64,000 nucleotides of DNA from a virus (lineage: Duplodnaviria; Heunggongvirae; Uroviricota; Caudoviricetes). The notes below the pieces were generated by a model, which saw only the letters and a program-made list of their open reading frames with translations, searched no databases and was not told where the DNA came from. The stretch's first letter is position 1; each line of letters opens with the position of its first letter. Position numbers and translations under genes: made by a program. The DNA is taken from IMG/VR virus record IMGVR_UViG_3300002834_000024, positions 160,001-224,000 of that record, one strand, 5' to 3'. Positions 8,092 through 58,840 of this stretch are shown here, in pieces.

Positions 8092-10869
8092 ATGGAAGAT
8101 ACATATAAAATAATGATGGCTGGTGCCAAATCCAAACAGGCTGTACCAGCTGGTACAAAACTGAATATTGGAGTTGAAAGAGATTTTCATTTACTTGAAA
8201 ATATTGATTATAAAGGGACTGTTGATACATATCAAGTATATCTTGATGAACGTGATGCTTGTACTCTTTACCGATTAATTGTTACGATTGATCCTGTTTG
8301 TACTAATGTTCTTTTTAATCCATGTTCAATTATTGTAGATAAAGATTATACAAGAATTTTTAATGAAGATGAATCATCAACACCAGCTACAGCATTAATC
8401 TATGAACCTGATAAGGGAAAAGATAAAAACCCACCTATCACATATTTTTGTGGATATGATATTTTTGATAATGTACAATTCAGAACAACAAGATTTCAAA
8501 GAGCAAAAAAGTTAGATTCATTAGTACCATTAAAACCAGACCCAGATGTTTTACCATTGGAAGATGATGAAGAAAATGAACCACTTATTCATGTTTATAC
8601 ATTAGATGATATTACTGATGTTCATACAGCAGCTAATAATTATTTAGTTGAGTATGATGGATGGATTTCATTTAAAAATCCAAATAAATTAACAATATAT
8701 CAGTTAAAATTTAATGACAAAACTGATTATGAATATGATAAAATAGCCATTGATAAAGAAGATCCAGATGATAGATTGGAAAAAGAAAGATATTTTTTAC
8801 CATTTGCATCTGAACATGCAAATTGTGATACAATAGATATGTTTCCTAAAAGAGAAATGTTTTCTTTTAACCCAATGGTTGAATATAATGTAAATCCCGA
8901 AACTTTTAAATATGAAAGATGTCAATTTTTAAAAGAAGAAAATTGGCGATATTTTATAACATATCCTTACCGAAATGATTTTGAACACTGGTTAGTTACT
9001 GGTGAAGATGGGGAAAATGGTATTCCAATTATTTTTGGAAAAAAACTGGAAGCAGATGATAAAGAAAATATTAAATTTAATGTTCCAGTTGGAAAATTTA
9101 CGACAGCATACCCACATAATTTACAAAGGTCTGATAGAATTTATTTAACAAGTGATCAAAAAGAATATACCGTATTAGATATTGAAGATAAACGTACAGC
9201 ATATTTGTGGATTGAGGGTGTAAATACATCAGATCCAGTATGGGATAATGCAAGAATAAGAAGGATTGTTAATAATACTAAATCAGATTATTATATAAGA
9301 GTATTTAGAAAATTACCTAATTGGAAATTTGAAGAAGAAGAAATTACACCTAAAAATTTTGAAGATAGATTAGAAGTAAACAATACTGAATTTACTAATT
9401 CAAAACAAGCATTATCTTATGCTACAACAATATTTACAGATAGTATAAGTCAAATTGTTTTTACAGATAGTATTAATATTAATTTATTAACAGATAATCG
9501 TTGTCGACCATTAACAGAAATGTATTTAACAATTTTGAAAAATAATGAAGGTGATAAACAGTGGACAAGTGGTTCATGGGGTTCGTATGAAACTAAATAC
9601 CAAAGATTTTGGTCTAAAAATACAGTCGGATTTGAATTAACAAATCTTAAAGAAAAAGATATGGTACAACCAACTCTTAATGATAAAAGTACCTATGAAA
9701 CAAATTATCCTTCTGTATTTTATCTACATAATCTACAAGAAGCACCTGGTGGTGAATGGCAAGAAGGTGAAGCGGGTCCACCACAGAAAATAGAAATTAT
9801 TGATAAACAAGTTGAACCAGCACAGGAACAACCTGGATACACGAAAAATATTGAATTTGTTTATTCTCCAAAAAGTTTACAAACATCTGAAAATTTAGGG
9901 GATGTTGATGATGAAGAAACAGTTGAATTTTATGGCGATATTGCTGAATGGTCGCCTGGTGATTTTCAAGAAACAGTATTAGCACCTGTTTGTTACAGAT
10001 TTAACACCACAAGTAGAGAATCATTTGAATGGGCTGATAAAATGATGGTATTTCACCAAATTTGGCAAGATGATGAAGATAGAGGGTATGATCCAGATAC
10101 AGGTGCAACTCTATTAACTGATGAATATGATCCAGAAACAGGTGATGAATCAGAGGGGCCAGATTATGAAATCCCTGAAACATTAGATGATTGTAATGAT
10201 TTGTATAGCAATGGGACAAAATTTGTTTACAGAGGTTATATGAACATTGGACCAAGACCAGAGGGATATTATCATCGAGCTCATCATAAAATACCTTTTA
10301 AATGGTATTCAAATAAATTAAGACAAAAAACAGGAAAAGAAATAAAAGTAAAAATTATGCAACCAGAAAATTGTGTTGATGAACCAATGATTGCTTTTAT
10401 TACTTATACAAAACATAGTTTAATGTCAAGAGATGTAATTAGAATACATATCAATGATAAAGAACCAAATGATCCACCATGTGATAAATTATTTAGAGTT
10501 ACTTGTCCTGCAATTGACAGAGCAAAGTTTTTAATTCCGATGGATGATGAGATTATGGCAGCTGGTAAAGATGGTATTACTATTACCCATTATCTTGAAG
10601 AAATACCAACATGGGCGCAAAAATTAGAAGATGGTAGTTATGTATGGAGAAATATATTATTAAATGATGAACAAGATAGTACACATGCAGAAGACCAACA
10701 TGAAGAATTTCCATTTACAAATGGTCATTTTTACGTTCACAATTTGATTAAATTTTATTTAAGACGACAAGGCAGAGCATTATATTATAAACCATATCTG
10801 AATGATATTGCAATGGATCCATATCACCCAGATATACATGATGAAGAACCACCAAAAGATATTTGTTAA
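8092..10869 (+). CDS. Putative structural protein (925 aa)
   Basis: Long ORF within the structural operon; TATTTAT motif at 8080. Confidence 0.6.
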   Translation: MEDTYKIMMAGAKSKQAVPAGTKLNIGVERDFHLLENIDYKGTVDTYQVYLDERDACTLYRLIVTIDPVCTNVLFNPCSIIVDKDYTRIFNEDESSTPATALIYEPDKGKDKNPPITYFCGYDIFDNVQFRTTRFQRAKKLDSLVPLKPDPDVLPLEDDEENEPLIHVYTLDDITDVHTAANNYLVEYDGWISFKNPNKLTIYQLKFNDKTDYEYDKIAIDKEDPDDRLEKERYFLPFASEHANCDTIDMFPKREMFSFNPMVEYNVNPETFKYERCQFLKEENWRYFITYPYRNDFEHWLVTGEDGENGIPIIFGKKLEADDKENIKFNVPVGKFTTAYPHNLQRSDRIYLTSDQKEYTVLDIEDKRTAYLWIEGVNTSDPVWDNARIRRIVNNTKSDYYIRVFRKLPNWKFEEEEITPKNFEDRLEVNNTEFTNSKQALSYATTIFTDSISQIVFTDSININLLTDNRCRPLTEMYLTILKNNEGDKQWTSGSWGSYETKYQRFWSKNTVGFELTNLKEKDMVQPTLNDKSTYETNYPSVFYLHNLQEAPGGEWQEGEAGPPQKIEIIDKQVEPAQEQPGYTKNIEFVYSPKSLQTSENLGDVDDEETVEFYGDIAEWSPGDFQETVLAPVCYRFNTTSRESFEWADKMMVFHQIWQDDEDRGYDPDTGATLLTDEYDPETGDESEGPDYEIPETLDDCNDLYSNGTKFVYRGYMNIGPRPEGYYHRAHHKIPFKWYSNKLRQKTGKEIKVKIMQPENCVDEPMIAFITYTKHSLMSRDVIRIHINDKEPNDPPCDKLFRVTCPAIDRAKFLIPMDDEIMAAGKDGITITHYLEEIPTWAQKLEDGSYVWRNILLNDEQDSTHAEDQHEEFPFTNGHFYVHNLIKFYLRRQGRALYYKPYLNDIAMDPYHPDIHDEEPPKDIC

Positions 10870-10882
10870 AAAATTTTAGATT

Positions 10883-12997
10883 ATGATTTTAAACCGTTAT
10901 CAAGCAAATAATAAAAATATAGTATCAAAAATACAGAATTTCAAAATTGTTCAAGCGTTTGACAATGTTGATGCTGGATTTTTTGAATTTTATTTTGATA
11001 AACCACATATGTTAAATGATGGTTCAATGCTTAATATCAGTGATCCTGAAAATTATGATTATAAAATGGATTTATATCCAAATGTACTTAGAGGAAATGC
11101 TATTATCAGATTAAGACCACAAGTTCGGATTGGAATAACAGCAACTATGAAATACAAATGGAGATATGCAGATAATTCCAATGATTGGGTTTTAATGGGT
11201 GGTGGAGGCGCATTGCAAGGTACAGTTGATATTCCTATACCTGGTGGAATGGTTGAACAAGAATTTGTAACTTATAAAGATTCATTAAATCACGTTGGTA
11301 TTGGAGAACCATTTGTTATTCAAATTGGTAGTTTAAATGGTATGATTGCAGTAAAAGAACAACATTCATCAGAGTGGCAACCACTAATAAACCCATCAGA
11401 TTTACCTGATTGCGGTGTTTGGTCAGATCATTCGATAGTTGCTTCTGTTGTAATAAATGATACTTATTTACGAGTAAATAGATTCGATTTATGTAAAAAA
11501 ATTAACATAAAAAGACGTGGGTATGATGATTGTGGAAAATATTATTTTTTCACAGATTATGGTTGGAATCAAACTAAAAATAAATGGTTTGATCACTTAT
11601 ATACATCACCTTGTGAATGTCAAGAAATATGTGCTGTAATAGATAATATGCCATGGTGGGAAGTTTTTGGTGGGTTATTACATAGTAATGAAAGTGGAAC
11701 TGCTTCTTGTCCAGTTGATCCACCACAATCAAATCCAGATGGTATATATGGTGGGGGCGCAATTCAACAAAAACCGAAAGCACCTGAACAATGCGAAATA
11801 GTTTCAATTCAAGTATATAAACATTGTGATGATTTATATGAACCAATTTGTGCAAACAAAGCAAATATTTTAAAACCTGGTTCATCAAATATAGATTACT
11901 CTTTTTCTATTTTAAATGATATTGAATTTGAAAATGTAAGAGAAATTAGAAAATGTTTAGCATTGAATTGTTTAAAATTTTGGCGAGATGTTACAGGTTT
12001 TCAATGTGAAATAGGTTTAGATATGAATTTTGATGTTTCATTAGGAAGAAATGACAAATGGAATACAAAATTTATTGAAGATGAAAAAAAGAAAACAATT
12101 AACCCAATTCTTGATAATGAACGAGTAAGATTTGAACCATATTGGAAAAATGGTGATGATGATTTTACTATGATTAATCATATAAAATTTCAATTAGTTT
12201 TCTTGGATGAAGAAAATAAACCTGATACATGGACAGATGAAAAAACACCAATACCAGAGGATCCAACTTGTTGGAAAACATTAGGATTTATTGATGATGA
12301 TGTCAAATATCAAAAAATGAAATTGAAAAAGTGTTTCCTAAGATTATCATTTTATGATAATAACAATCCAAGTCAATATCTTTTAGAACATTGGAATACT
12401 GTATTTGTTGACATTAATATGATGTTTTCTGATTTTATATATGGAATTAATTCAATATCAGGATTTAATTACAATACAATTCCAATTTCAAAATTCAAAG
12501 ACCCATATACAGGTGAGGATACAGAGGGATTTAGAACAACTTTTCATGTATATAATCCTTATATAAAGAATATTGAAAGAACACCACATCCTGATGATGA
12601 TGAAGCATATCGAAAAGACGGTCCGTTTAATATGAATTATTCCAATACTTCCGATGGTTATTATATTTATTTATATGATCCAGCATTGGATTGTAAATGT
12701 AATCCACATAATGGATATTGGGATCAAATACCAAATGCTTTGTATATGAAATTAGAATTTAATAATGCTAAGACAGGTAAAAGACATTTATTCTTTCATG
12801 GAAAAAATAAGAGTGGTTATGACATGGATCAAGTCTTTTTTGGTGAACAAGCAATTTGGACAAAGATATGGGTTGAATATAATAAAAAATTAAATAAATT
12901 TATTTGGTATCCTGATCCTGAAAGTTCAAATGTTGAACAAGATGAAAAGTGTAAAGATACAATGATATTTAGATTTTGGGAAGCATATGTTAAGTAA
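10883..12997 (+). CDS. Putative structural protein (704 aa)
   Basis: Long ORF tightly packed in the structural operon. Confidence 0.6.
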   Translation: MILNRYQANNKNIVSKIQNFKIVQAFDNVDAGFFEFYFDKPHMLNDGSMLNISDPENYDYKMDLYPNVLRGNAIIRLRPQVRIGITATMKYKWRYADNSNDWVLMGGGGALQGTVDIPIPGGMVEQEFVTYKDSLNHVGIGEPFVIQIGSLNGMIAVKEQHSSEWQPLINPSDLPDCGVWSDHSIVASVVINDTYLRVNRFDLCKKINIKRRGYDDCGKYYFFTDYGWNQTKNKWFDHLYTSPCECQEICAVIDNMPWWEVFGGLLHSNESGTASCPVDPPQSNPDGIYGGGAIQQKPKAPEQCEIVSIQVYKHCDDLYEPICANKANILKPGSSNIDYSFSILNDIEFENVREIRKCLALNCLKFWRDVTGFQCEIGLDMNFDVSLGRNDKWNTKFIEDEKKKTINPILDNERVRFEPYWKNGDDDFTMINHIKFQLVFLDEENKPDTWTDEKTPIPEDPTCWKTLGFIDDDVKYQKMKLKKCFLRLSFYDNNNPSQYLLEHWNTVFVDINMMFSDFIYGINSISGFNYNTIPISKFKDPYTGEDTEGFRTTFHVYNPYIKNIERTPHPDDDEAYRKDGPFNMNYSNTSDGYYIYLYDPALDCKCNPHNGYWDQIPNALYMKLEFNNAKTGKRHLFFHGKNKSGYDMDQVFFGEQAIWTKIWVEYNKKLNKFIWYPDPESSNVEQDEKCKDTMIFRFWEAYVK

Positions 12998-20600: not shown

Positions 20601-23600
20601 ACTATTTCAACAATTACTGTTACAAATGGGGGTACTGGATATGTAAATCCAAGAATTATTATTACTGATCCAACAGGAACTGGGGCAAGAGCAAGTGCTG
20701 TTATAACAGCTGGTGTAATTACCTCAATAAATGTGGATAGAATTGGAAATGGATATACTGCACCAACAGTAACCATTGTTGATGAACATATAGATACAAT
20801 TACCATTACAAATGGCGGTTTTGGATATGTAAATCCTTATGTAACTATTACTGACACAACAGGTACAGGCGCAAGAATTACACCAGTTATAACAGGTGGA
20901 GTAATAACAGATTTAACAATTGATGATGGTGGTAGTGGTTATACATTACCAACAATTAATATAATAGAAAATAGAATTGATAGTATTACCATTACAAATG
21001 GTGGTAGTGGATATAGCAGACCAACAGTTGTAATTACTGATATAACAGGTACAGGCGCAACAGCCACAGCATCTCAAACAACTGGTGTTATAGATAACAT
21101 AACATTAACAAATTCAGGTAGTGGTTATACATCCCCAACAATATCGTTTGGTGATGAGATTTCTTCCTTAACTATTGTGAATGGTGGTAATGGATATATT
21201 GCACCTGTTTTAAATATCTCTGATCCAACAGGAACAGGTGCAACTGCAATAGCAACGGTTGATGGGGTAGTTGGTGCAATTTCAACAATTACTGTTACAA
21301 ATGGGGGTAATAATTATGTTGCACCATTAGTTAGATTTATTGATCCAACGGGAACAGGTGCATCAGCAAGTGTTACACAAGTTGGTGGTGTTATCACTTC
21401 AATCACAGTTAATACAAGAGGACAAGGATATACAAGCCCAAGTATAGTAATAACTGATAGATTATCATCAATCAATTTAACAAACGGTGGTAGTGGATAT
21501 GTTTCACCTACTGTAACTATAACAGATCCAGGTGGTATTGGTACAGGTGCGACTGCCACAGCAACAATAGATGGTCAACCAGGTCAAATAGCATCAATTA
21601 CATTAACAAATGGTGGTAGTGGATATAGCAGACCAACTGTTATGATAAGTGATCCAACAGGCACAGGGGCTATTGCAACAGCAATGGTATCTGGTGGTGT
21701 TATACAATCAATAAATGTTACAAACAAAGGAAATGGTTATACTTCGCCAACCATTACAATTGGCGATAGTATTTCAGCAATAAATGTTACAAATCAAGGT
21801 AATAATTATTCAAGCACAGCAAGAGTTACCATAACAGATTCAACTGGTTCTGGTAGTGGTGCTGTTGGTGTTGTAAATGTTGTTGCAGGGAAAGTCATTG
21901 GGGTTTCTGTATCAAGTAGAGGACAAAATTATATAAATCCTGTTGTAACCATCGTAGATAACATGGGAGCTGGAACTGGGGCAACAGCAGTTGCTGTGGT
22001 TGGAACTGGGGCAACAGCCACAGCAACAATAGCAACAGGTGCAATACAAACAATAACATTAAATGCACCAGGTTTAAATTATTCAAATCCACTTGTAACA
22101 ATAAATGATACAAATGGTTCTGGCGCGACAGCAACAGCTGTAATAGGAACTGGTGCTATCTTTACAATTACAACAACAAGTGGTATAATTAATACCGCAA
22201 ACATTAATAATAGAGGGGTAAATTATACATCTCCCACAATTACAATTGGTGATAGATTATCAAGTATTACAATTACAAATGGTGGTTCTGGATATACATC
22301 CCCAACTGTAACTATAACAGATCCAACTGGACGACAATCTGTTTGTGTTGCAACCCAAGTCGCTGGTGTTATAACAGAAATAAGAGTTGTTAATGGTGGA
22401 AATAATTTTACATCTCCGACTGTAACCATTAATGATCCAACAGGAACAGGTGCAACTGCCACAGTAATAGTTGCTGGAACTGGTGGTATAATCAATGCTG
22501 TAATTGGTACAGGTGCAACTGCCACACTTGTTATTGGCGGTACAGGTGCAACTGCCACAGCAACAGTTGCTGGAACTGGTGGAACTGCAACCCCAACACT
22601 TGGAACTGGTACAATAACATCTATTGTTGTTACAAATGGTGGTTTTGGATATACTGCACCAATTGTAACTATTATGGATCCAACAGGCACAGGGGCTATT
22701 GCAACAGCAACAATTACAGGTATAGGTGCGACAGCAACAGCAAGTGTAAATTATGGAGTACAATCTATAACTTTAATCAATGCAGGTAAAGGATATACAA
22801 ATCCAAAAGTATCTATCATAGGTCAAATTGGTACAGGTGCGACAGCCACAGCAACGGTTAATACAGGTATTACAGAAATAATTGTTACAAATCCTGGTAG
22901 CAGTTATACAAATCCAACAGTAACAGTTACAGACCCAACAGGAAGTGGTGTTGTTCTCAATATTATCAGGGGTATTATATCTATAACAGTTACAAATCCT
23001 GGTAGCGGTTATACAAATCCACAAGTTGTTATTACCGATCCAACAGGTTTTGGTGCAACAGCCACAGCAATAATCAATTCTGGTATTGATTCTGTATCAT
23101 TTACACCAGGATTGGGATATTCAAATCCTACTATTGTTGTATCTGATCCAAACGGTTCTGGTGCAACCTTTATTGTTGAAATTAATAGATTTATACAAGC
23201 AATTAATGTTACAAATGGTGGTTCTGGTTATCTTAATCCAATTGTAACAATAAACGACACAAATGGCTCTGGTGCAACAGCCGAAGCTGTTGTTGATACA
23301 ACATTATCATCTATTACAGTTTTGAATGGTGGTTCTGGTTATACATCACCAACAATAACAATAGTTGAAGATTATATTTCAGAAATACTTATTGTAACAG
23401 GGGGTAGTGGTTATACAAACCCACAAGTGGTTATTACTGACCCAACAGGAACGGGTGCAACAGCTAATGCTACAATTGGTGTTTCTGGTGATATAGAAAC
23501 AATTACTGTTACAAATGGTGGTTTTGGCTATATATCACCGACAATAACAATTACTGATCCAACAGGTTTTGGTGCATTAACTATTGCATCAATAGATGGA

Positions 23601-26600
23601 ATAGGTGCAACAGTTAGTTATACTACTACATGTATAATTTCATCAATAACAGTTACAAATGGTGGTTCAAATTATTCAAACAATCCGACAATAACAATTA
23701 CTGATCCAACAGGTTCAGATGCAACAGCTACAGCAACAGTTAATACAGGTATTTCTTCAATAACAATATTAAGTTCTGGAAATGGTTATACTTCGCCAAG
23801 TATTTCAATTTCAGATTCAACAGGAACGGGTGCAAGAGCGCAGTTAAGAACATCATTTAGTATTATAGCAGTAAATGTATTAGCACCTGGTAATAATTAT
23901 ACATCACCAACAGTAATAATCACCGATCCAACAGGAACAGGTGCAACAGCCACAGCAACGGTTAATACATCAATATCATCTATTGTTATAACTAATCCTG
24001 GTTCTGGCTATACCAATGCAACAGTAACAATCACTGATCCAACAGGTACAGGTGCAATTGCAGAAGCATTAGTTGGTAACAGTGTTTCTAAAATAATTGT
24101 TATGGATGGTGGAAGTGGGTACTCAAATCCTCAAATAGTTATTACAGATCCAACTGGTTCTGGTGCAACAGCCGAAGCAGTATTAGGTAATAATGGCACA
24201 ATTACAAGCATATTTGTAAGAAATCATGGTATTGGTTATTCAAACCCAATAGTAGAAATTGTTGAACTTGATCCATACAACAGAGCATCAGCAATTGCAA
24301 CAGCTGATAGTAGTATTGAATCAATTACATTAACAAATGGTGGTTCAAGTTATATTAATCCTATTGTAATAATCAAAGATACTTGTGGAGGTGGTGGTGT
24401 TGGCGCAGTAGCTGAATATGAATTATCTAATGGTGTCATTACAAATTTAATTTTGGTATCTGGTGGTTCTGGATATAGAACTGGTTGTGTTGTAGTTGAA
24501 ATAAAAGATGAAGTTGTTTGTCAAGCACATACATTTACAATAAATTATCTTTATAATGATCATAATGGGGAACCTTGTGATTTAATTAAAACAGAAGTAG
24601 AAGTTGATGGTGGAACAATGTTTTCGGAAGGGACTTTAACCAATCCAAGCATTTCATTTCATATAAGACCAAAACTTTATTATGTTGAAGATTTTTTTAA
24701 TAACTTAAATGATTTTCAAAGAGTAATATTAAATAGATATACAATACCTATTTACACATCAATATTTCGTGTACCTATTCCAAATGAAATGGGTGATTAT
24801 GTTGGTATTTGGGGGGAACTTAAATATAGCTGGCCAATGCCTGATGGATGGAATTTAGATATTCAAACAAATGCCTTTAATGATTATGTTTCTAATTTAT
24901 CTAATATTTCTCAATATCTTGATAATAATGGTGGTAGATGTGATAATTTGTATCGGATGCTTACACATGAATCTTTAAAAAATCTTGACTGGTCATTCCA
25001 AAGAATTGAAGATGATAAATTAGCCGAAGCACACATGCTTGGTGAAAGTAAATTTAAAAAGATGATGCGTGTTTATGGTCGTCAATATGATGAAGTTAAA
25101 AAATATATTCATGGTATTGAATTAATGAACAATTTATCATATAATGAAAGGGATAATTATCCAGATGCAATGTTGAAAACGAATGTTGAATACTTTGGAT
25201 GGAAAGCATTATCACTTGAAAATAAACATAACATAGGAAATTCAAGTGGTCAATTATATTATGGGTGGACGGAAGATTATAATTCACATAATTTAGAATT
25301 GGAGTTTTATAGACGTTTATTATTAAATTCTGCTCATTTATCCAAATGGAAAGGAACCAAACATGGTTTAGAAATGATTATGAACTTATTTGGAATTGAC
25401 CGTAGAAATTGGGAAATTAAAGAATATGTTTATGTTGCTACTGGTAGTAATTTTATGTCCACAGATAAAAACTATATGTTTAGTAACAACAGACCAGCAA
25501 CAACAGTATTAGATGGGTATTTTTATAGGGTTGCCACTGGAGTAGTAACTTATAATGGTAGAACATATTATCCTGGACAAGGGTTTTCTGGCTGTCCAAA
25601 TGGTGGTGCAGCCACAGGGGGAACATTTTATATTGATGAGGTTGAAAGTATTGCTTATCTAAATTCAAAACGTGAATATACATTGAGGGGAGAAATTTTC
25701 TTTCATGGGGAATTAACACAAGAAAATGAGAATGAATATAATGACCCAGATGATTTACATGATTTGTGTATTGAACGATGGTATTATGGAGATTTTAAAG
25801 TTTGTCCAATTTGTGGACCTTATAATCCAGCAACAGGATTAGGTGGTGGTATTATTTCATCAGCTGGTTCTGGTAGAACAATTTGTCCTCGTTGTCATGG
25901 GACAGGTCAAGTTAGGGATTTTGTAGGTGTTCCTGCATTTAAAGGAAATACAAATATACTTTATTATCAACAAAAAGGAGGATGGTATCAAGATACAATG
26001 ACAACTATTGGACTTGCAAATACAATGACTGATTTGTTTAGAACAAATAGAAATGATTTACAAGAAGGTATGGTATATTTTGTAAAATCTGATGGAATAA
26101 TAGGTTCAACGCATTATTGGGTATTAGTTGATTTAAACAATTGGTCATCATTAAAAGGTTGGCATCCTGTAACCCAATCAGAAATGGGTGGATTTTCGTT
26201 TGTTGGTGCTGTTTCAAAAGACCATATTAGTGTTAATATTAATTTAATGTTACAAATACAGGATGAAAATTCTGGTAATAACCCACATACAGGTGGTATT
26301 GATGGTTATGATGATGGTTTGTCGTATTTACAAAATATTGGTAGTCGAATTAAAGATTGTACAGGTACTAATGTAGTATGTCGTTATAATCCTCCTCGTT
26401 CAGCAGTTCTTAATTGTCAAGGATTATTCAAATATGTTTTGGATAATTCACCTGAATGTATATGGTCAGAAACACAGTATTCAAATCTCGAAAATATTGG
26501 ATTTATCATTAATTGTGAATTAGATACCAAAAAATGTTGGGGTGTGTATTCAAATAATGATGATAAATTACATACAGATAATACTTATAACATTTTAGAA

Positions 26601-28692: not shown

Positions 28693-28738
28693 ATGAAATG
28701 TCCGAAATTAAACATATTTTTCGGACATTTTCATTTTT
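28693..28738 (+). terminator. Intrinsic terminator
   Basis: ATGAAATGTCCGAAA/TTTCGGACATTTTCAT stem plus T run. Confidence 0.75.
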
Positions 28739-54304: not shown

Positions 54305-54419
54305 AATATTAATTATTTTAATATAAATATGATTAAAACTTGGAATATTGAAATATTTATACTATATTTATAAATGAAATTACAGAGGTAATTCAAGAAA
54401 AAAGAAAATAACAAGGTAA

Positions 54420-54515
54420 AGGAAATTCACAGCAATTTTTTAAAAATTAACAATTATTCAATTCAAAGACCGTAGGGTTGATCTATCGGGATCAACAAAC
54501 AAAAACAAATTTCCT
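54420..54515 (+). ncRNA. ACAGCAA stem RNA, unit 1
   Basis: AGGAAATT/AATTTCCT closing stem, ACAGCAA, internal GTTGATC/GATCAAC hairpin, 3' T run. Confidence 0.55.
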
Positions 54516-54527
54516 GTCTTTTTTAAA

Positions 54528-54586
54528 GGAAAACTAACAGCAATTTTTAAACATACAAATTTTAGGCGTGTATTAAAGAGTTTTCC
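54528..54586 (+). ncRNA. ACAGCAA stem RNA, unit 2
   Basis: GGAAAACT/AGTTTTCC closing stem, ACAGCAA, ATACA/TGTAT hairpin, 3' T run. Confidence 0.55.
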
Positions 54587-54645
54587 GTTTTTTTTTTGAA
54601 AATTTAGAAATAATCAATATATTTATATTTGATTAAAAATTATAT

Positions 54646-54717
54646 CGTGGGATGGAGAAGTGGTATCTCGTGGGGCCCATAACCCCAAGATCGCAGGATC
54701 GTAACCTGCTCCCGCAA
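54646..54717 (+). tRNA. tRNA-fMet (CAT), initiator type
   Basis: C1:A72 mismatch, A11:U24, GGG/CCC anticodon stem; atypical C33 and T-loop ATCGTAA. Confidence 0.9.
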
Positions 54718-54727
54718 CAAACTTATA

Positions 54728-54792
54728 GGAAAACTAACAGCAATGTTTAAAAACCATCATTCTGAATCAATGACGACATTAAAATGTTTTCC
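54728..54792 (+). ncRNA. ACAGCAA stem RNA, unit 3
   Basis: GGAAAAC/GTTTTCC closing stem, ACAGCAA, TCATT-CTGAATC-AATGA hairpin, 3' T-rich run. Confidence 0.55.
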
Positions 54793-54813
54793 GTTATTTT
54801 TTAAAAATTGAAC

Positions 54814-54842: not shown

Positions 54843-54977
54843 ATGTTTTTAGTAACAATGACATCTTATATTCAAAATTCTATCAATTTACGTGGTGGAA
54901 ATAAGAATAATAAACCCTTTGGTGATGATGAACAACCAAAAGGGCAAGACCTGTTATTGCAAAAATTTGAAACATAA
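54843..54977 (+). CDS. Attenuator leader peptide 1 (44 aa) for tRNA operon 1
   Basis: MFLVTMTSYIQNSINLRGGNKNNKPFGDDEQPKGQDLLLQKFET; core residues match the downstream tRNA set. Confidence 0.75.
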   Translation: MFLVTMTSYIQNSINLRGGNKNNKPFGDDEQPKGQDLLLQKFET

Positions 54978-55006: not shown

Positions 55007-55065
55007 GAGAACTCTCAATAACAAGGTCAAGAATAGGGCAAGTTATTGGGAGTTTTCATTTTTTT
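55007..55065 (+). terminator. Attenuator terminator 1 (competes with antiterminator 54948-54959 : 55016-55028)
   Basis: 16-bp stem GAGAACTCTCAATAAC/GTTATTGGGAGTTTTC plus T7. Confidence 0.8.
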
Positions 55066-55108
55066 AACATCCAGTTCAAAAGAGTTTGAATAATTTGGAT
55101 TACTTTTG
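55064..55108 (+). promoter_or_regulatory. Bipartite promoter TTAACATCCAG-N26-TACTTTTG just upstream of tRNA-Glu
   Basis: Conserved motif and spacing. Confidence 0.7.
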
Positions 55109-55297: not shown

Positions 55298-55374
55298 CGA
55301 AAGGTAGAGGAGTCTGGTTCCCTCGTCATCTGATGTGCAGGTGGAGTACAATGGTTCAAATCCATTACTTTCGA
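55298..55374 (+). tRNA. Atypical tRNA-like gene with a Pro-type body and an abnormal anticodon arm
   Basis: C1:G72, A73, D-loop AGTCTGGT, T-arm AATGG-TTCAAAT-CCATT; anticodon arm TCATCTG-ATGTG-CAGGTGG. Confidence 0.6.
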
Positions 55375-55381
55375 CTAATAT

Positions 55382-55457
55382 CTAGATGTATAGGAGTCTG
55401 GTTTATCTAGCTCGCCCTGGAAGCGAGATCACGTTGGTTCAAATCCAACCATCTAGA
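55382..55457 (+). tRNA. tRNA-Pro (TGG), atypical C33/A37
   Basis: CTCGC-CCTGGAA-GCGAG; C1:G72, A73. Confidence 0.85.
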
Positions 55458-55464
55458 CACAAAT

Positions 55465-55629: not shown

Positions 55630-55702
55630 CGAGTAGTCGCACAGTTGGTAGTGCGCTTGGTTTGGGACCAAGAGGTCGGGAGTTCGAGTCTCTCCTATTC
55701 GA
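55630..55702 (+). tRNA. tRNA-Pro (TGG), canonical
   Basis: CTTGG-TTTGGGA-CCAAG. Confidence 0.93.
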
Positions 55703-55718
55703 CATAAAAATAGAAATT

Positions 55719-55766
55719 ATGAAGAAGATTTTTAAAATAAAACGAAAACATATGCAGTCCCCATAG
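55719..55766 (+). CDS. Mini leader peptide 3 (MKKIFKIKRKHMQSP) before tRNA-Lys/Arg/Gln
   Basis: AT-rich leader; five Lys codons, then Arg and Gln; stop codon inside hairpin 55759-55784. Confidence 0.55.
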   Translation: MKKIFKIKRKHMQSP

Positions 55767-55799
55767 TCACTATCGGCTATGGGGTCGCTATCAGGCTAT

Positions 55800-55870
55800 T
55801 TCCTCATAGTTCAATGGTAGAACTCTACACTTTTAATGTAGATATTCAGGTTCGATTCCTGATGGGGAAA
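55800..55870 (+). tRNA. tRNA-Lys (TTT)
   Basis: CTACA-CTTTTAA-TGTAG. Confidence 0.92.
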
Positions 55871-57415: not shown

Positions 57416-58147
57416 ATGATTATGAACAAAGATAAAAAAGACTTGATAGTTGAGAGTTATAAGAACAAATTTTCCTTTTTACTTGGATATGATCCAGAAA
57501 TTGGGGGCGAATTGATAGAAGCAAACCACCATAATTTTATGTCAGAAATTATGGGACAAGATTCATTCAATAAACAACCAATGCAAAGATTAGATGAAAT
57601 AACAACTGACAGATTGTTAGGAAAACATTATGAAAATGGATTTGTTATTCTGTCAGCATCAAGGAGTGAATTATCCGATGCAGAAAATGTAACACGAAAT
57701 CAAAAACTTTTAAATATTTTACAAAGTAGTAGTAATGTTTTTTCATTTTTACCAGTCTATGGTGGATATATCGAAAATAAGGGTACAGAAAACGAACAAC
57801 GTGTTTTTGAAAGAAGTTTTGTAATCTTGAATTTTGATAAAAATGGTAATGTTGGAGATTTTGATGATTTAATGAGTTTTTCACAAGAACTTTCTAATCG
57901 TTTTCATCAAGAAACATATCTTATCAAAAAACCAGGTAATGCACCACCATATTATATTCGTACAAAAAGTGGCAAGGTAGATTGGGAATTTACTGGTGAA
58001 ATCAAAATAGATGATTTAACACAAAAATATTTTACCCGATTAAGACAACTTGGAAAACAATTTACATTTGAAGGTGTTTATATTAATCCAAAACCAATGT
58101 GTTATAGTGAAAGACATTGTAGATATTTGAAAAATGAAATATTTTAA
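57416..58147 (+). CDS. Putative S-adenosylmethionine lyase (T3 SAMase-like) with N-terminal extension
   Basis: ILSASRSELSDAEN-x-x-R, GGYIE, FERSFVI, F-HQE motifs follow the order I recall for T3 SAMase (VSAFRS-x-L-x-D-x-x-N-x-x-R, GCYRE, EEKTV, WEQD). Confidence 0.6.
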   Translation: MIMNKDKKDLIVESYKNKFSFLLGYDPEIGGELIEANHHNFMSEIMGQDSFNKQPMQRLDEITTDRLLGKHYENGFVILSASRSELSDAENVTRNQKLLNILQSSSNVFSFLPVYGGYIENKGTENEQRVFERSFVILNFDKNGNVGDFDDLMSFSQELSNRFHQETYLIKKPGNAPPYYIRTKSGKVDWEFTGEIKIDDLTQKYFTRLRQLGKQFTFEGVYINPKPMCYSERHCRYLKNEIF

Positions 58148-58463: not shown

Positions 58464-58574
58464 ATGAAACGATTTAGTTTACATATTAGTATTACCTTAT
58501 CAGCAATGGCGTATTGCTGGTTGGTGTCTTATTGTACACTTTTTACACATTTTGGTGGAATTGTTTCAAGTTAA
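58464..58574 (+). CDS. Attenuator leader peptide 2 (36 aa) for tRNA operon 2
   Basis: MKRFSLHISITLSAMAYCWLVSYCTLFTHFGGIVSS; residues 4-30 are exclusively the 12 amino acids of the downstream tRNAs. Confidence 0.8.
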   Translation: MKRFSLHISITLSAMAYCWLVSYCTLFTHFGGIVSS

Positions 58575-58736: not shown

Positions 58737-58746
58737 CAAATATATT

Positions 58747-58831
58747 GGAGAGTAAACCTGGACATGGGTTAGGGACCGCCTGCTAAGCGGATCGTTCCGC
58801 AAGGAATTTGGATCGAGACCAATGCTCTCCG
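58747..58831 (+). tRNA. tRNA-Ser (GCT), apparent 8/4 fold, T-loop ATCGAGA
   Basis: CCGC-CTGCTAA-GCGG; long variable arm; G73. Confidence 0.85.
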
Positions 58832-58840
58832 CAAAATTTT

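Follow-up and report, generated by a model that had tools for sequence, protein, structure and literature searches.

The window, that is, the whole stretch of 64,000 nucleotides analysed here, is part of a virus record of 274,786 bases with 29% GC from termite-gut metagenomes, and 24 tRNA genes are arranged in it as two arrays. The record represents a termite-gut jumbo phage of about 275 kb, whose host is inferred to belong to the Bacteroidota because its genes lack Shine-Dalgarno sequences, their starts are A-rich and a promoter-like motif ends in TAnnTTTG. It is generally known that A-rich starts without a Shine-Dalgarno sequence and the TAnnTTTG motif both indicate Bacteroidota. Shine-Dalgarno-like words precede 2% of the genes and 5% of the leaders, and A is found at position -3 in 54% and 60% of them, respectively. 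The standard code applies to this phage; recoding of TAG was ruled out, with a coding density of 0.889 under code 11 against 0.899 under either recoding and with 15 long ORFs ending in TAG.

The two arrays are preceded by ORFs, leader 1 at 54843-54977 and leader 2 at 58464-58574. Leader 1 is accompanied by a hairpin with a T run, which is of the terminator type, and both the leader and a terminator-like hairpin are recognisable in L049 and L050, two termite-gut contigs described below. Nested within the first array, between tRNA-Pro and tRNA-Lys, is a further small leader, and its parts and surroundings are as follows.

55064..55108, + strand: promoter-like motif, an 11-mer followed after 26-27 nt by a Bacteroidota-type TAnnTTTG, 10 nt before tRNA-Glu
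55630..55703, + strand: tRNA-Pro(UGG), ending 15 nt before the leader start; the same neighbour is found in L049, L050 and L061
55704..55718, + strand: A-rich start context without a Shine-Dalgarno sequence, as in the long genes of the phage
55719..55766, + strand: leader mini-ORF of 15 codons, with Lys at codons 2, 3, 6, 8 and 10 and Arg CGA at codon 9
55740..55748, + strand: Lys-Arg-Lys core, kept in L049, L050, G003, G004, G007, G008 and G011
55755..55757, + strand: CAG (Gln), codon 13, at the stop position of the relatives, with read-through to a backup TAG three codons on
55759..55768, + strand: arm A, the protector strand, resembling the 5' strand of tRNA-Lys
55770..55784, + strand: arm B, the anti-tRNA strand, with its core at 55775-55784; 55770-55775 can extend the pairing into the D-loop
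55787..55796, + strand: small linker hairpin, which shortens the loop of the B:tRNA helix
55800..55871, + strand: tRNA-Lys(UUU), 69.4 bits, with its 3' acceptor strand at 55863-55869 and the target of arm B at 55802-55811

The 11-base motif is followed by TAnnTTTG at a fixed offset of 37-38 nt in 25 of its 26 copies in the genome, and TAnnTTTG is what we take to be the Bacteroidota -7 element, hence the promoter role given to the motif. Further copies lie in the window at 28737, 56394, 57318, 58144 and 62359, and similar copies are present in L049 and L050. It is likely that the motif defines a promoter class of the phage and that the copy at 55064 serves as a second transcription start for the tRNA array, although this role is inferred; the copy sits downstream of the leader-1 terminator and would bypass it.

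With tRNA-Pro ending so close upstream, the leader lies within a polycistronic pre-tRNA. A preliminary description, made from the sequence alone, had reported an ORF of 15 codons with five Lys codons, Arg CGA and Gln, a stop within the 5' arm of a hairpin at 55759-55784 lacking a T run, and a 3' arm that can pair instead with 55802-55811 over 10 bp including three G:U pairs; each of these claims held exactly; the position of the stop proved not to be general, since in relatives it lies at the hairpin foot. The Lys codons are AAG, AAG, AAA, AAA and AAA, the Gln codon is CAG, and the stop TAG at 55764-55766 falls within arm A. The hairpin A:B (55759-55768 with 55775-55784) has 10 bp and a free energy of -17.3 kcal/mol alone, with z of -3.2 to -3.9 against shuffles; only 2 T occur in the 8 nt after it, and a terminator scan of the window did not list it. 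From the generally known length of the ribosome footprint, a ribosome with Lys10 in the A site would end at the foot of this hairpin. The segment with which arm B can pair corresponds to positions 3-12 of tRNA-Lys, and another register of the B:tRNA duplex reaches 15 bp and enters the D-loop. The tRNA itself has a cloverleaf with a UUU anticodon and matches RF00005, and thus qualifies as tRNA-Lys. The linker hairpin has counterparts at the same place in L049, L050 and L061, which are unrelated to it and likewise small.

The evidence from the window alone is modest, because the excess of Lys codons is limited (finding at least 5 Lys among 14 codons has a probability of 0.003 given the codon use of the genome and of 0.018 when bases are shuffled) and the G-rich arm B can pair with many tRNA-Lys 5' ends, doing so as well or better with 14 of 32 foreign ones (rank 15 of 33). 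It is the relatives that raise the element far above chance. L049 and L050 were reached through homologues of a flanking metallopeptidase gene without use of the motif, and both carry the ORF, in a version of 12 codons, between tRNA-Pro and tRNA-Lys, followed by a hairpin of different sequence; a third syntenic relative, L061, was found by a DNA pattern. Across the window and these three contigs, pairing is complete (100%) in the A:B helix and the acceptor stem, where 8 pairs show double changes; in the A:B helix alone these occur in 4 of 10 pairs. For the helix B:C, in which C denotes the 5' acceptor and D strand of tRNA-Lys, 36 of 36 cells are paired at tRNA positions 3-11 in the termite clade, with double changes at positions 7 and 9; taken by themselves, these four closest phages give no significant covariation of B:C (51 of 500 shuffles).

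The metallopeptidase alignment also reached jumbo phage records, most of them of 340-412 kb. In G004, G007 and G008, a Lys-rich leader is followed by a hairpin that starts at the stop codon, one arm of which is complementary to the first tRNA-Lys(CUU) in its 5' half, and in G003 and G011 the leader and an intact A:B hairpin are kept before a truncated first tRNA-Lys. In addition, the element is present in LR745206.1 (GenBank, 635 kb), which was found via a tRNA-Lys pattern and carries it at about 343136-343209 with the leader MKTKLKYKR and three Lys tRNAs behind it. The Arg codon of the core is CGA or CGT in all relatives found by synteny, while CGA and CGT make up 26% of the Arg codons of the window genome; the conserved CG-type codon may possibly break runs of A or slow the ribosome, which is only an inference. 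The element is not universal in related jumbo phages, as G002 and G009 have tRNA-Lys without a leader. It was not found in cultured phages, where BLAST of the region matched only tRNA bodies or A-rich noise; the leader is absent before tRNA-Lys of Lak-A2, and the pattern search found no tRNA-Lys in pT24 and DAC16. A generic hairpin pattern was also tried and was rejected, its matches being unrelated terminator-like stems only.

Concerning the truncated genes of G003 and G011, the 3' half of the first tRNA-Lys was lost differently in the two, and a new strand closes a hairpin on the remaining 5' half; the sites are L086 (reversed) 1324-1368 and L083 1325-1370. That the leader and hairpin persist before such a damaged tRNA counts against the folding lock proposed below.

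Most members of the family came from a search whose pattern linked K-R-K codons with a Lys anticodon arm. Both the codons and the anticodon were thus built into the search, and about half of the ATGs lie at a position tolerated by the pattern, so that none of these features counts as evidence; the hairpin and the complementarity to the tRNA were not part of the pattern. Among 40 distinct viral pattern matches with a tRNA-Lys, an in-frame ATG is present in 39 and the ORF ends before the tRNA in 35, nearly all of the ends lying 33-67 nt upstream of it, and in bacterial genomes the same pattern gave such an ORF in one of seven cases. The three syntenic relatives and some 30 loci from more distant phages (33 non-redundant elements), together with LR745206.1, have in common the layout of an A-rich start, a Lys-rich mini-ORF, a stop codon, the hairpin A:B and tRNA-Lys. 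In all 33 the hairpin starts between -7 and +7 nt from the stop, and none shows a U-tract, neither behind the hairpin, where 8 nt contain at most 4 T, nor beyond position 12 of the tRNA. The duplex between the spacer and the first 15 nt of the tRNA has a median of -14.4 kcal/mol, compared with -6.4 when 271 other tRNAs on those contigs are taken (p about 1e-17). Spacer:tRNA pairing with the cognate partner (-10.6) exceeds that with non-cognate partners (-7.6), a difference reached in 0 of 100000 permutations, and the cognate partner is favoured over the swapped one in 16 of 20 disjoint nearest-neighbour pairs (p = 1.7e-4). The pairing lies mainly at tRNA positions 1-12, with a length of 7-18 bp and a median of 12. 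The test proposed in the preliminary description, covariation between the hairpin arm and the 5' end of tRNA-Lys in relatives, is therefore passed at the level of the family, where complementarity is kept and covaries.

Besides the searched K-R-K codons, Lys accounts for 52 of 211 codons across the family, and K-R-K ORFs precede non-Lys tRNAs in only 3 of 267 cases. AAA-AAA is found in none of the eight adjacent Lys-Lys codon pairs, and this absence may, tentatively, reflect avoidance of ribosome sliding. Meanwhile, 17 of 32 copies lie within 40 nt of an upstream tRNA and several stand before unrelated tRNAs, and in L193, at 9740-10070, two tRNA-Lys(UUU) genes lie side by side, with a separate mini-ORF and hairpin before each of them. 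These tandem and mid-array copies suggest that the element acts per gene. It can be seen from the above that the conserved ORF, both helices and their covariation, the fixed distance from stop to hairpin and the absence of a U-tract are shown, and that the element is very likely real, conserved and widespread.

The reading that best fits these observations is a Lys-sensing folding lock on tRNA-Lys that is read by the ribosome; we consider it likely, with a probability of roughly 0.7, and translation of the leader, stalling, the direction in vivo and the fate of the precursor are inferred. Four RNA segments would compete, A and B in the spacer, C in the 5' acceptor and D strand of tRNA-Lys, and D, its 3' acceptor strand. 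When Lys-tRNA is plentiful, the ribosome would run to the stop at the hairpin foot and cover A, and the freed B would pair with C during transcription, about 60 nt before D exists; with B:C formed there would be no cloverleaf and no substrate for RNase P, and the precursor would presumably be degraded. When Lys-tRNA is scarce, through starvation or cleavage by a host anticodon nuclease, the ribosome would stay upstream, A:B would close, C would pair with D and tRNA-Lys would mature; an untranslated leader would give the same outcome as a stall. The net effect would be negative feedback of tRNA-Lys on its own production without involvement of the neighbouring tRNAs, and in its logic the switch would be an attenuator displaced by one segment, in which the acceptor strands of the tRNA act as segments 3 and 4. 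If the promoter at 55064 is used, the lock would be the sole feedback on tRNA-Lys. The core idea of the preliminary description, attenuation at the level of tRNA folding, is thus supported by the conserved ORF and the absence of a terminator, while its mechanism remains inferred.

The mechanism was examined in a folding model (ViennaRNA) in which the ribosome masks 13 nt, counted from the first base of the codon in the A site; toeprints are known to give a footprint of this size. In L049, L050 and L061, the predicted probability of the acceptor stem is 0.82-1.0 with a stall at the last Lys codon and 0.00-0.28 with the ribosome at the stop. Over the 33 elements, the model gives an acceptor-stem probability above 0.5 in 14 with a stall on the second K of K-R-K and in 3 at the stop (p = 9e-5). 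ViennaRNA lacks the tertiary energy of tRNA, and for 20 of the 33 elements it disfavours the acceptor stem even without a ribosome; clean switching is accordingly predicted for only a subset. A referee may ask what makes the OFF state last. Once the ribosome has gone, A:B with the cloverleaf is calculated at -35.6 kcal/mol in the window against -20.8 to -26.4 for the alternative, a difference of 9-15 kcal/mol, and OFF therefore needs repeated ribosome traffic or quick decay. It has been reported that unprocessed precursors are degraded rapidly in E. coli (PMC7897497). Nevertheless, the irreversible OFF step is the weak point of the model, and the responsible nuclease has not been identified. 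RNase P RNA, RtcB and a T4-type RNA ligase were not found in the 74%-complete genome, the last of these searches being without a working control. The support rests on sequence and modelling alone, with no experiment and no RNA data.

The copy in the window differs from those of its relatives. In the alignment, its CAG codon 13 corresponds to a TAG or TAA stop in the three closest relatives, and since it is not a stop, the ORF runs three codons into arm A; the CAG itself has no independent confirmation. The stop inside arm A is a derived state particular to the window phage, and the stop of the relatives at the hairpin foot makes a cleaner switch. In the model, the acceptor-stem probability of the window is 0.67 with the ribosome at Lys10, 0.02 at codon 13 and 0.54 at the stop, so that the model places the maximum of invasion at codons 12-13, with less of it at the actual stop. 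CAG represents 12% of the Gln codons of the phage. It is conceivable that the lock of the window is leakier, or that it depends on slow reading of CAG, but both are inferences.

Several other explanations have to be weighed against the folding lock. The strongest of them, which we still regard as unlikely, keeps the same ribosome-read switch and gives it a transcriptional output: B:C or the unfolded tRNA would cause a pause and Rho-dependent or non-canonical termination, shutting off tRNA-Lys and everything downstream together. This would supply the irreversible step that the folding lock lacks; another tRNA-Lys directly follows in 14 of 32 loci, and G003 and G011 retain the switch together with a new closing strand for C, as if it served downstream genes. 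Against it, the U-tract is absent after the hairpin and after tRNA position 12, unlike in leader 1, locks stand before unrelated tRNAs (Trp, Ile, Met, Asp, Arg), and in L193 each of the two neighbouring Lys genes has a lock of its own. A constitutive aid to processing or folding, in which B:C would either mark the RNA for a nuclease by being double-stranded or act as a short-lived chaperone helix, with the ORF only setting the timing, is compatible with a B:C length of 7-18 bp (median 12) but is very improbable: it predicts many types of tRNA, whereas the element is confined to tRNA-Lys; B:C spans positions 1-12, and cleavage there would destroy the tRNA; and the Lys-rich ORF accompanies the helix at a fixed distance.

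The preliminary description had noted that Lys, Arg and Gln first appear in the leader in the order of the next three tRNAs, which are indeed Lys(UUU), Arg(ACG) and Gln(UUG), and a multivalent K/R/Q leader for this three-tRNA sub-operon, analogous to leaders 1 and 2, would follow from it. The codon order in the window, the Arg CGA or CGT in the core of all relatives found by synteny and the tRNA-Arg(ACG) after tRNA-Lys in L050 and L061 speak for this explanation. However, Gln is a former stop, and a stall there is predicted to block rather than release tRNA-Lys; the Arg codon is constant although the gene that follows tRNA-Lys changes (no tRNA in L049, tRNA-Arg in L050 and L061, and a tRNA for Lys, Trp, Ile, Asp or Met at other loci), so that codons and tRNAs do not track each other across relatives. 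The multivalent leader is thus held to be very unlikely; the order is true of the window and fails as a conserved feature, and the sensor is corrected to a Lys-specific one. A functionless combination of a chance ORF in A-rich DNA with a hairpin derived from a duplicated tRNA 5' end could draw on the resemblance of arm A to the 5' strand of the tRNA, on the ease with which A-rich spacers yield Lys codons (p = 0.018) and on similar hairpin stems being common in unrelated phages, but it is largely ruled out by the maintenance of the frame, the stop position, the hairpin and the cognate complementarity over 33 diverged elements that differ in sequence.

Leader-peptide attenuators such as trpL, hisL, pheL, thrL and pheM of pheST are the best-known systems of a related kind. 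Like the folding lock, they have a short ORF rich in control codons and exclusive helices (1:2, 2:3 and 3:4) set by the position of the ribosome, and starvation switches the downstream product on. The lock differs in having no terminator, in using the acceptor strands of the tRNA as segments 3 and 4, and in placing the control codons upstream of segment 1 with the stop at its foot, so that a stall preserves 1:2 rather than breaking it; moreover, the controlled product is the sensed tRNA itself. Membership of this class is supported by the control-codon ORF (5 Lys in 14 codons) and by exclusive helices at the ORF (A:B versus B:C), and fails because the intrinsic terminator, a hairpin with a U-tract, is missing. 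In translational attenuators, of which the ermC and cat leaders are examples, the ribosome position on a leader ORF likewise refolds downstream RNA without termination. Unlike them, the lock masks a tRNA strand and not a ribosome-binding site, and its signal is codon decoding and not a drug; the masked segment is tRNA positions 1-12 and the next protein gene starts more than 200 nt later, behind two more tRNAs, so that membership is not met. The element is not a T-box, a metabolite riboswitch or another Rfam family either: the spacer in the window gave no credible Rfam match at E up to 5, and for L061 and L327 Rfam gives only tRNAs at the gathering score. A synthetic theophylline-dependent RNase P riboswitch (PMC7897497) is similar in that an upstream structure gates 5' maturation of a tRNA and the unprocessed precursor is lost, but it is engineered and ligand-driven and masks the leader rather than the tRNA body; according to the same report, direct riboswitch control of the cleavage site had not previously been demonstrated. 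In the folding trap of the T4 td intron (PMC3017892), upstream translation also decides how a structured phage RNA folds; there, translation relieves misfolding and no codon-sensing is described, whereas in the lock completed translation is predicted to cause the misfold. Natural leader-peptide control of phage tRNA genes or of tRNA folding was not found in the open-access literature searched.

A bolder reading, toward which we lean by a small margin, is that these elements form a natural and widespread class of ribosome-operated switches with tRNA acceptor strands as output helices and feedback per gene, and that jumbo phages withhold tRNA-Lys until the decoding of Lys codons fails, as may happen once a host anticodon nuclease has fired. 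If true, the folding and maturation of a stable RNA would be a third output of attenuation beside termination and translation initiation. It would also bear on why phages carry tRNAs, as a locked tRNA-Lys would be a replacement supplied on demand, and this agrees better with the tRNA-depletion hypothesis than with constant codon compensation. The preliminary description had pointed to tRNA-Lys as a classic target of anticodon nucleases; it has been reported that PrrC cleaves tRNA-Lys(UUU) (PMC10264068), which is a plausible selective reason for the lock, and the present data link these phages to no particular nuclease. With about 150 nt and many natural compensatory variants, the element could find use as a portable sensor of the Lys-tRNA supply in vivo.

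Several minor observations were made around the arrays. Two odd tRNA-Pro-like genes lie at 55298-55375 and 55382-55458; one has an over-long anticodon arm, is called Thr by ARAGORN and has no Rfam tRNA match, and the other carries C at position 33. By eye, a gene resembling tRNA-Ser(GCU) was recognised at 58744-58835; it is reported by neither ARAGORN nor Rfam. Between the arrays, 57416-58147 encodes a protein of the SAM lyase family (PF23780, E = 3.5e-7), likely an anti-restriction gene; no homologues were located near tRNAs elsewhere. Stem-loop repeats with ACAGCAA lie at 54415-54800 and 58289 of the window; such units surround the initiator tRNA and form further clusters near 21500-24000 of the window and at 69-70 kb of the genome, and similar ones are present in L049. 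In L050, a Cas12f/TnpB-like gene (PF07282) with a short array of CRISPR-like repeats behind it (10658-12510) is inserted just before the initiator tRNA.
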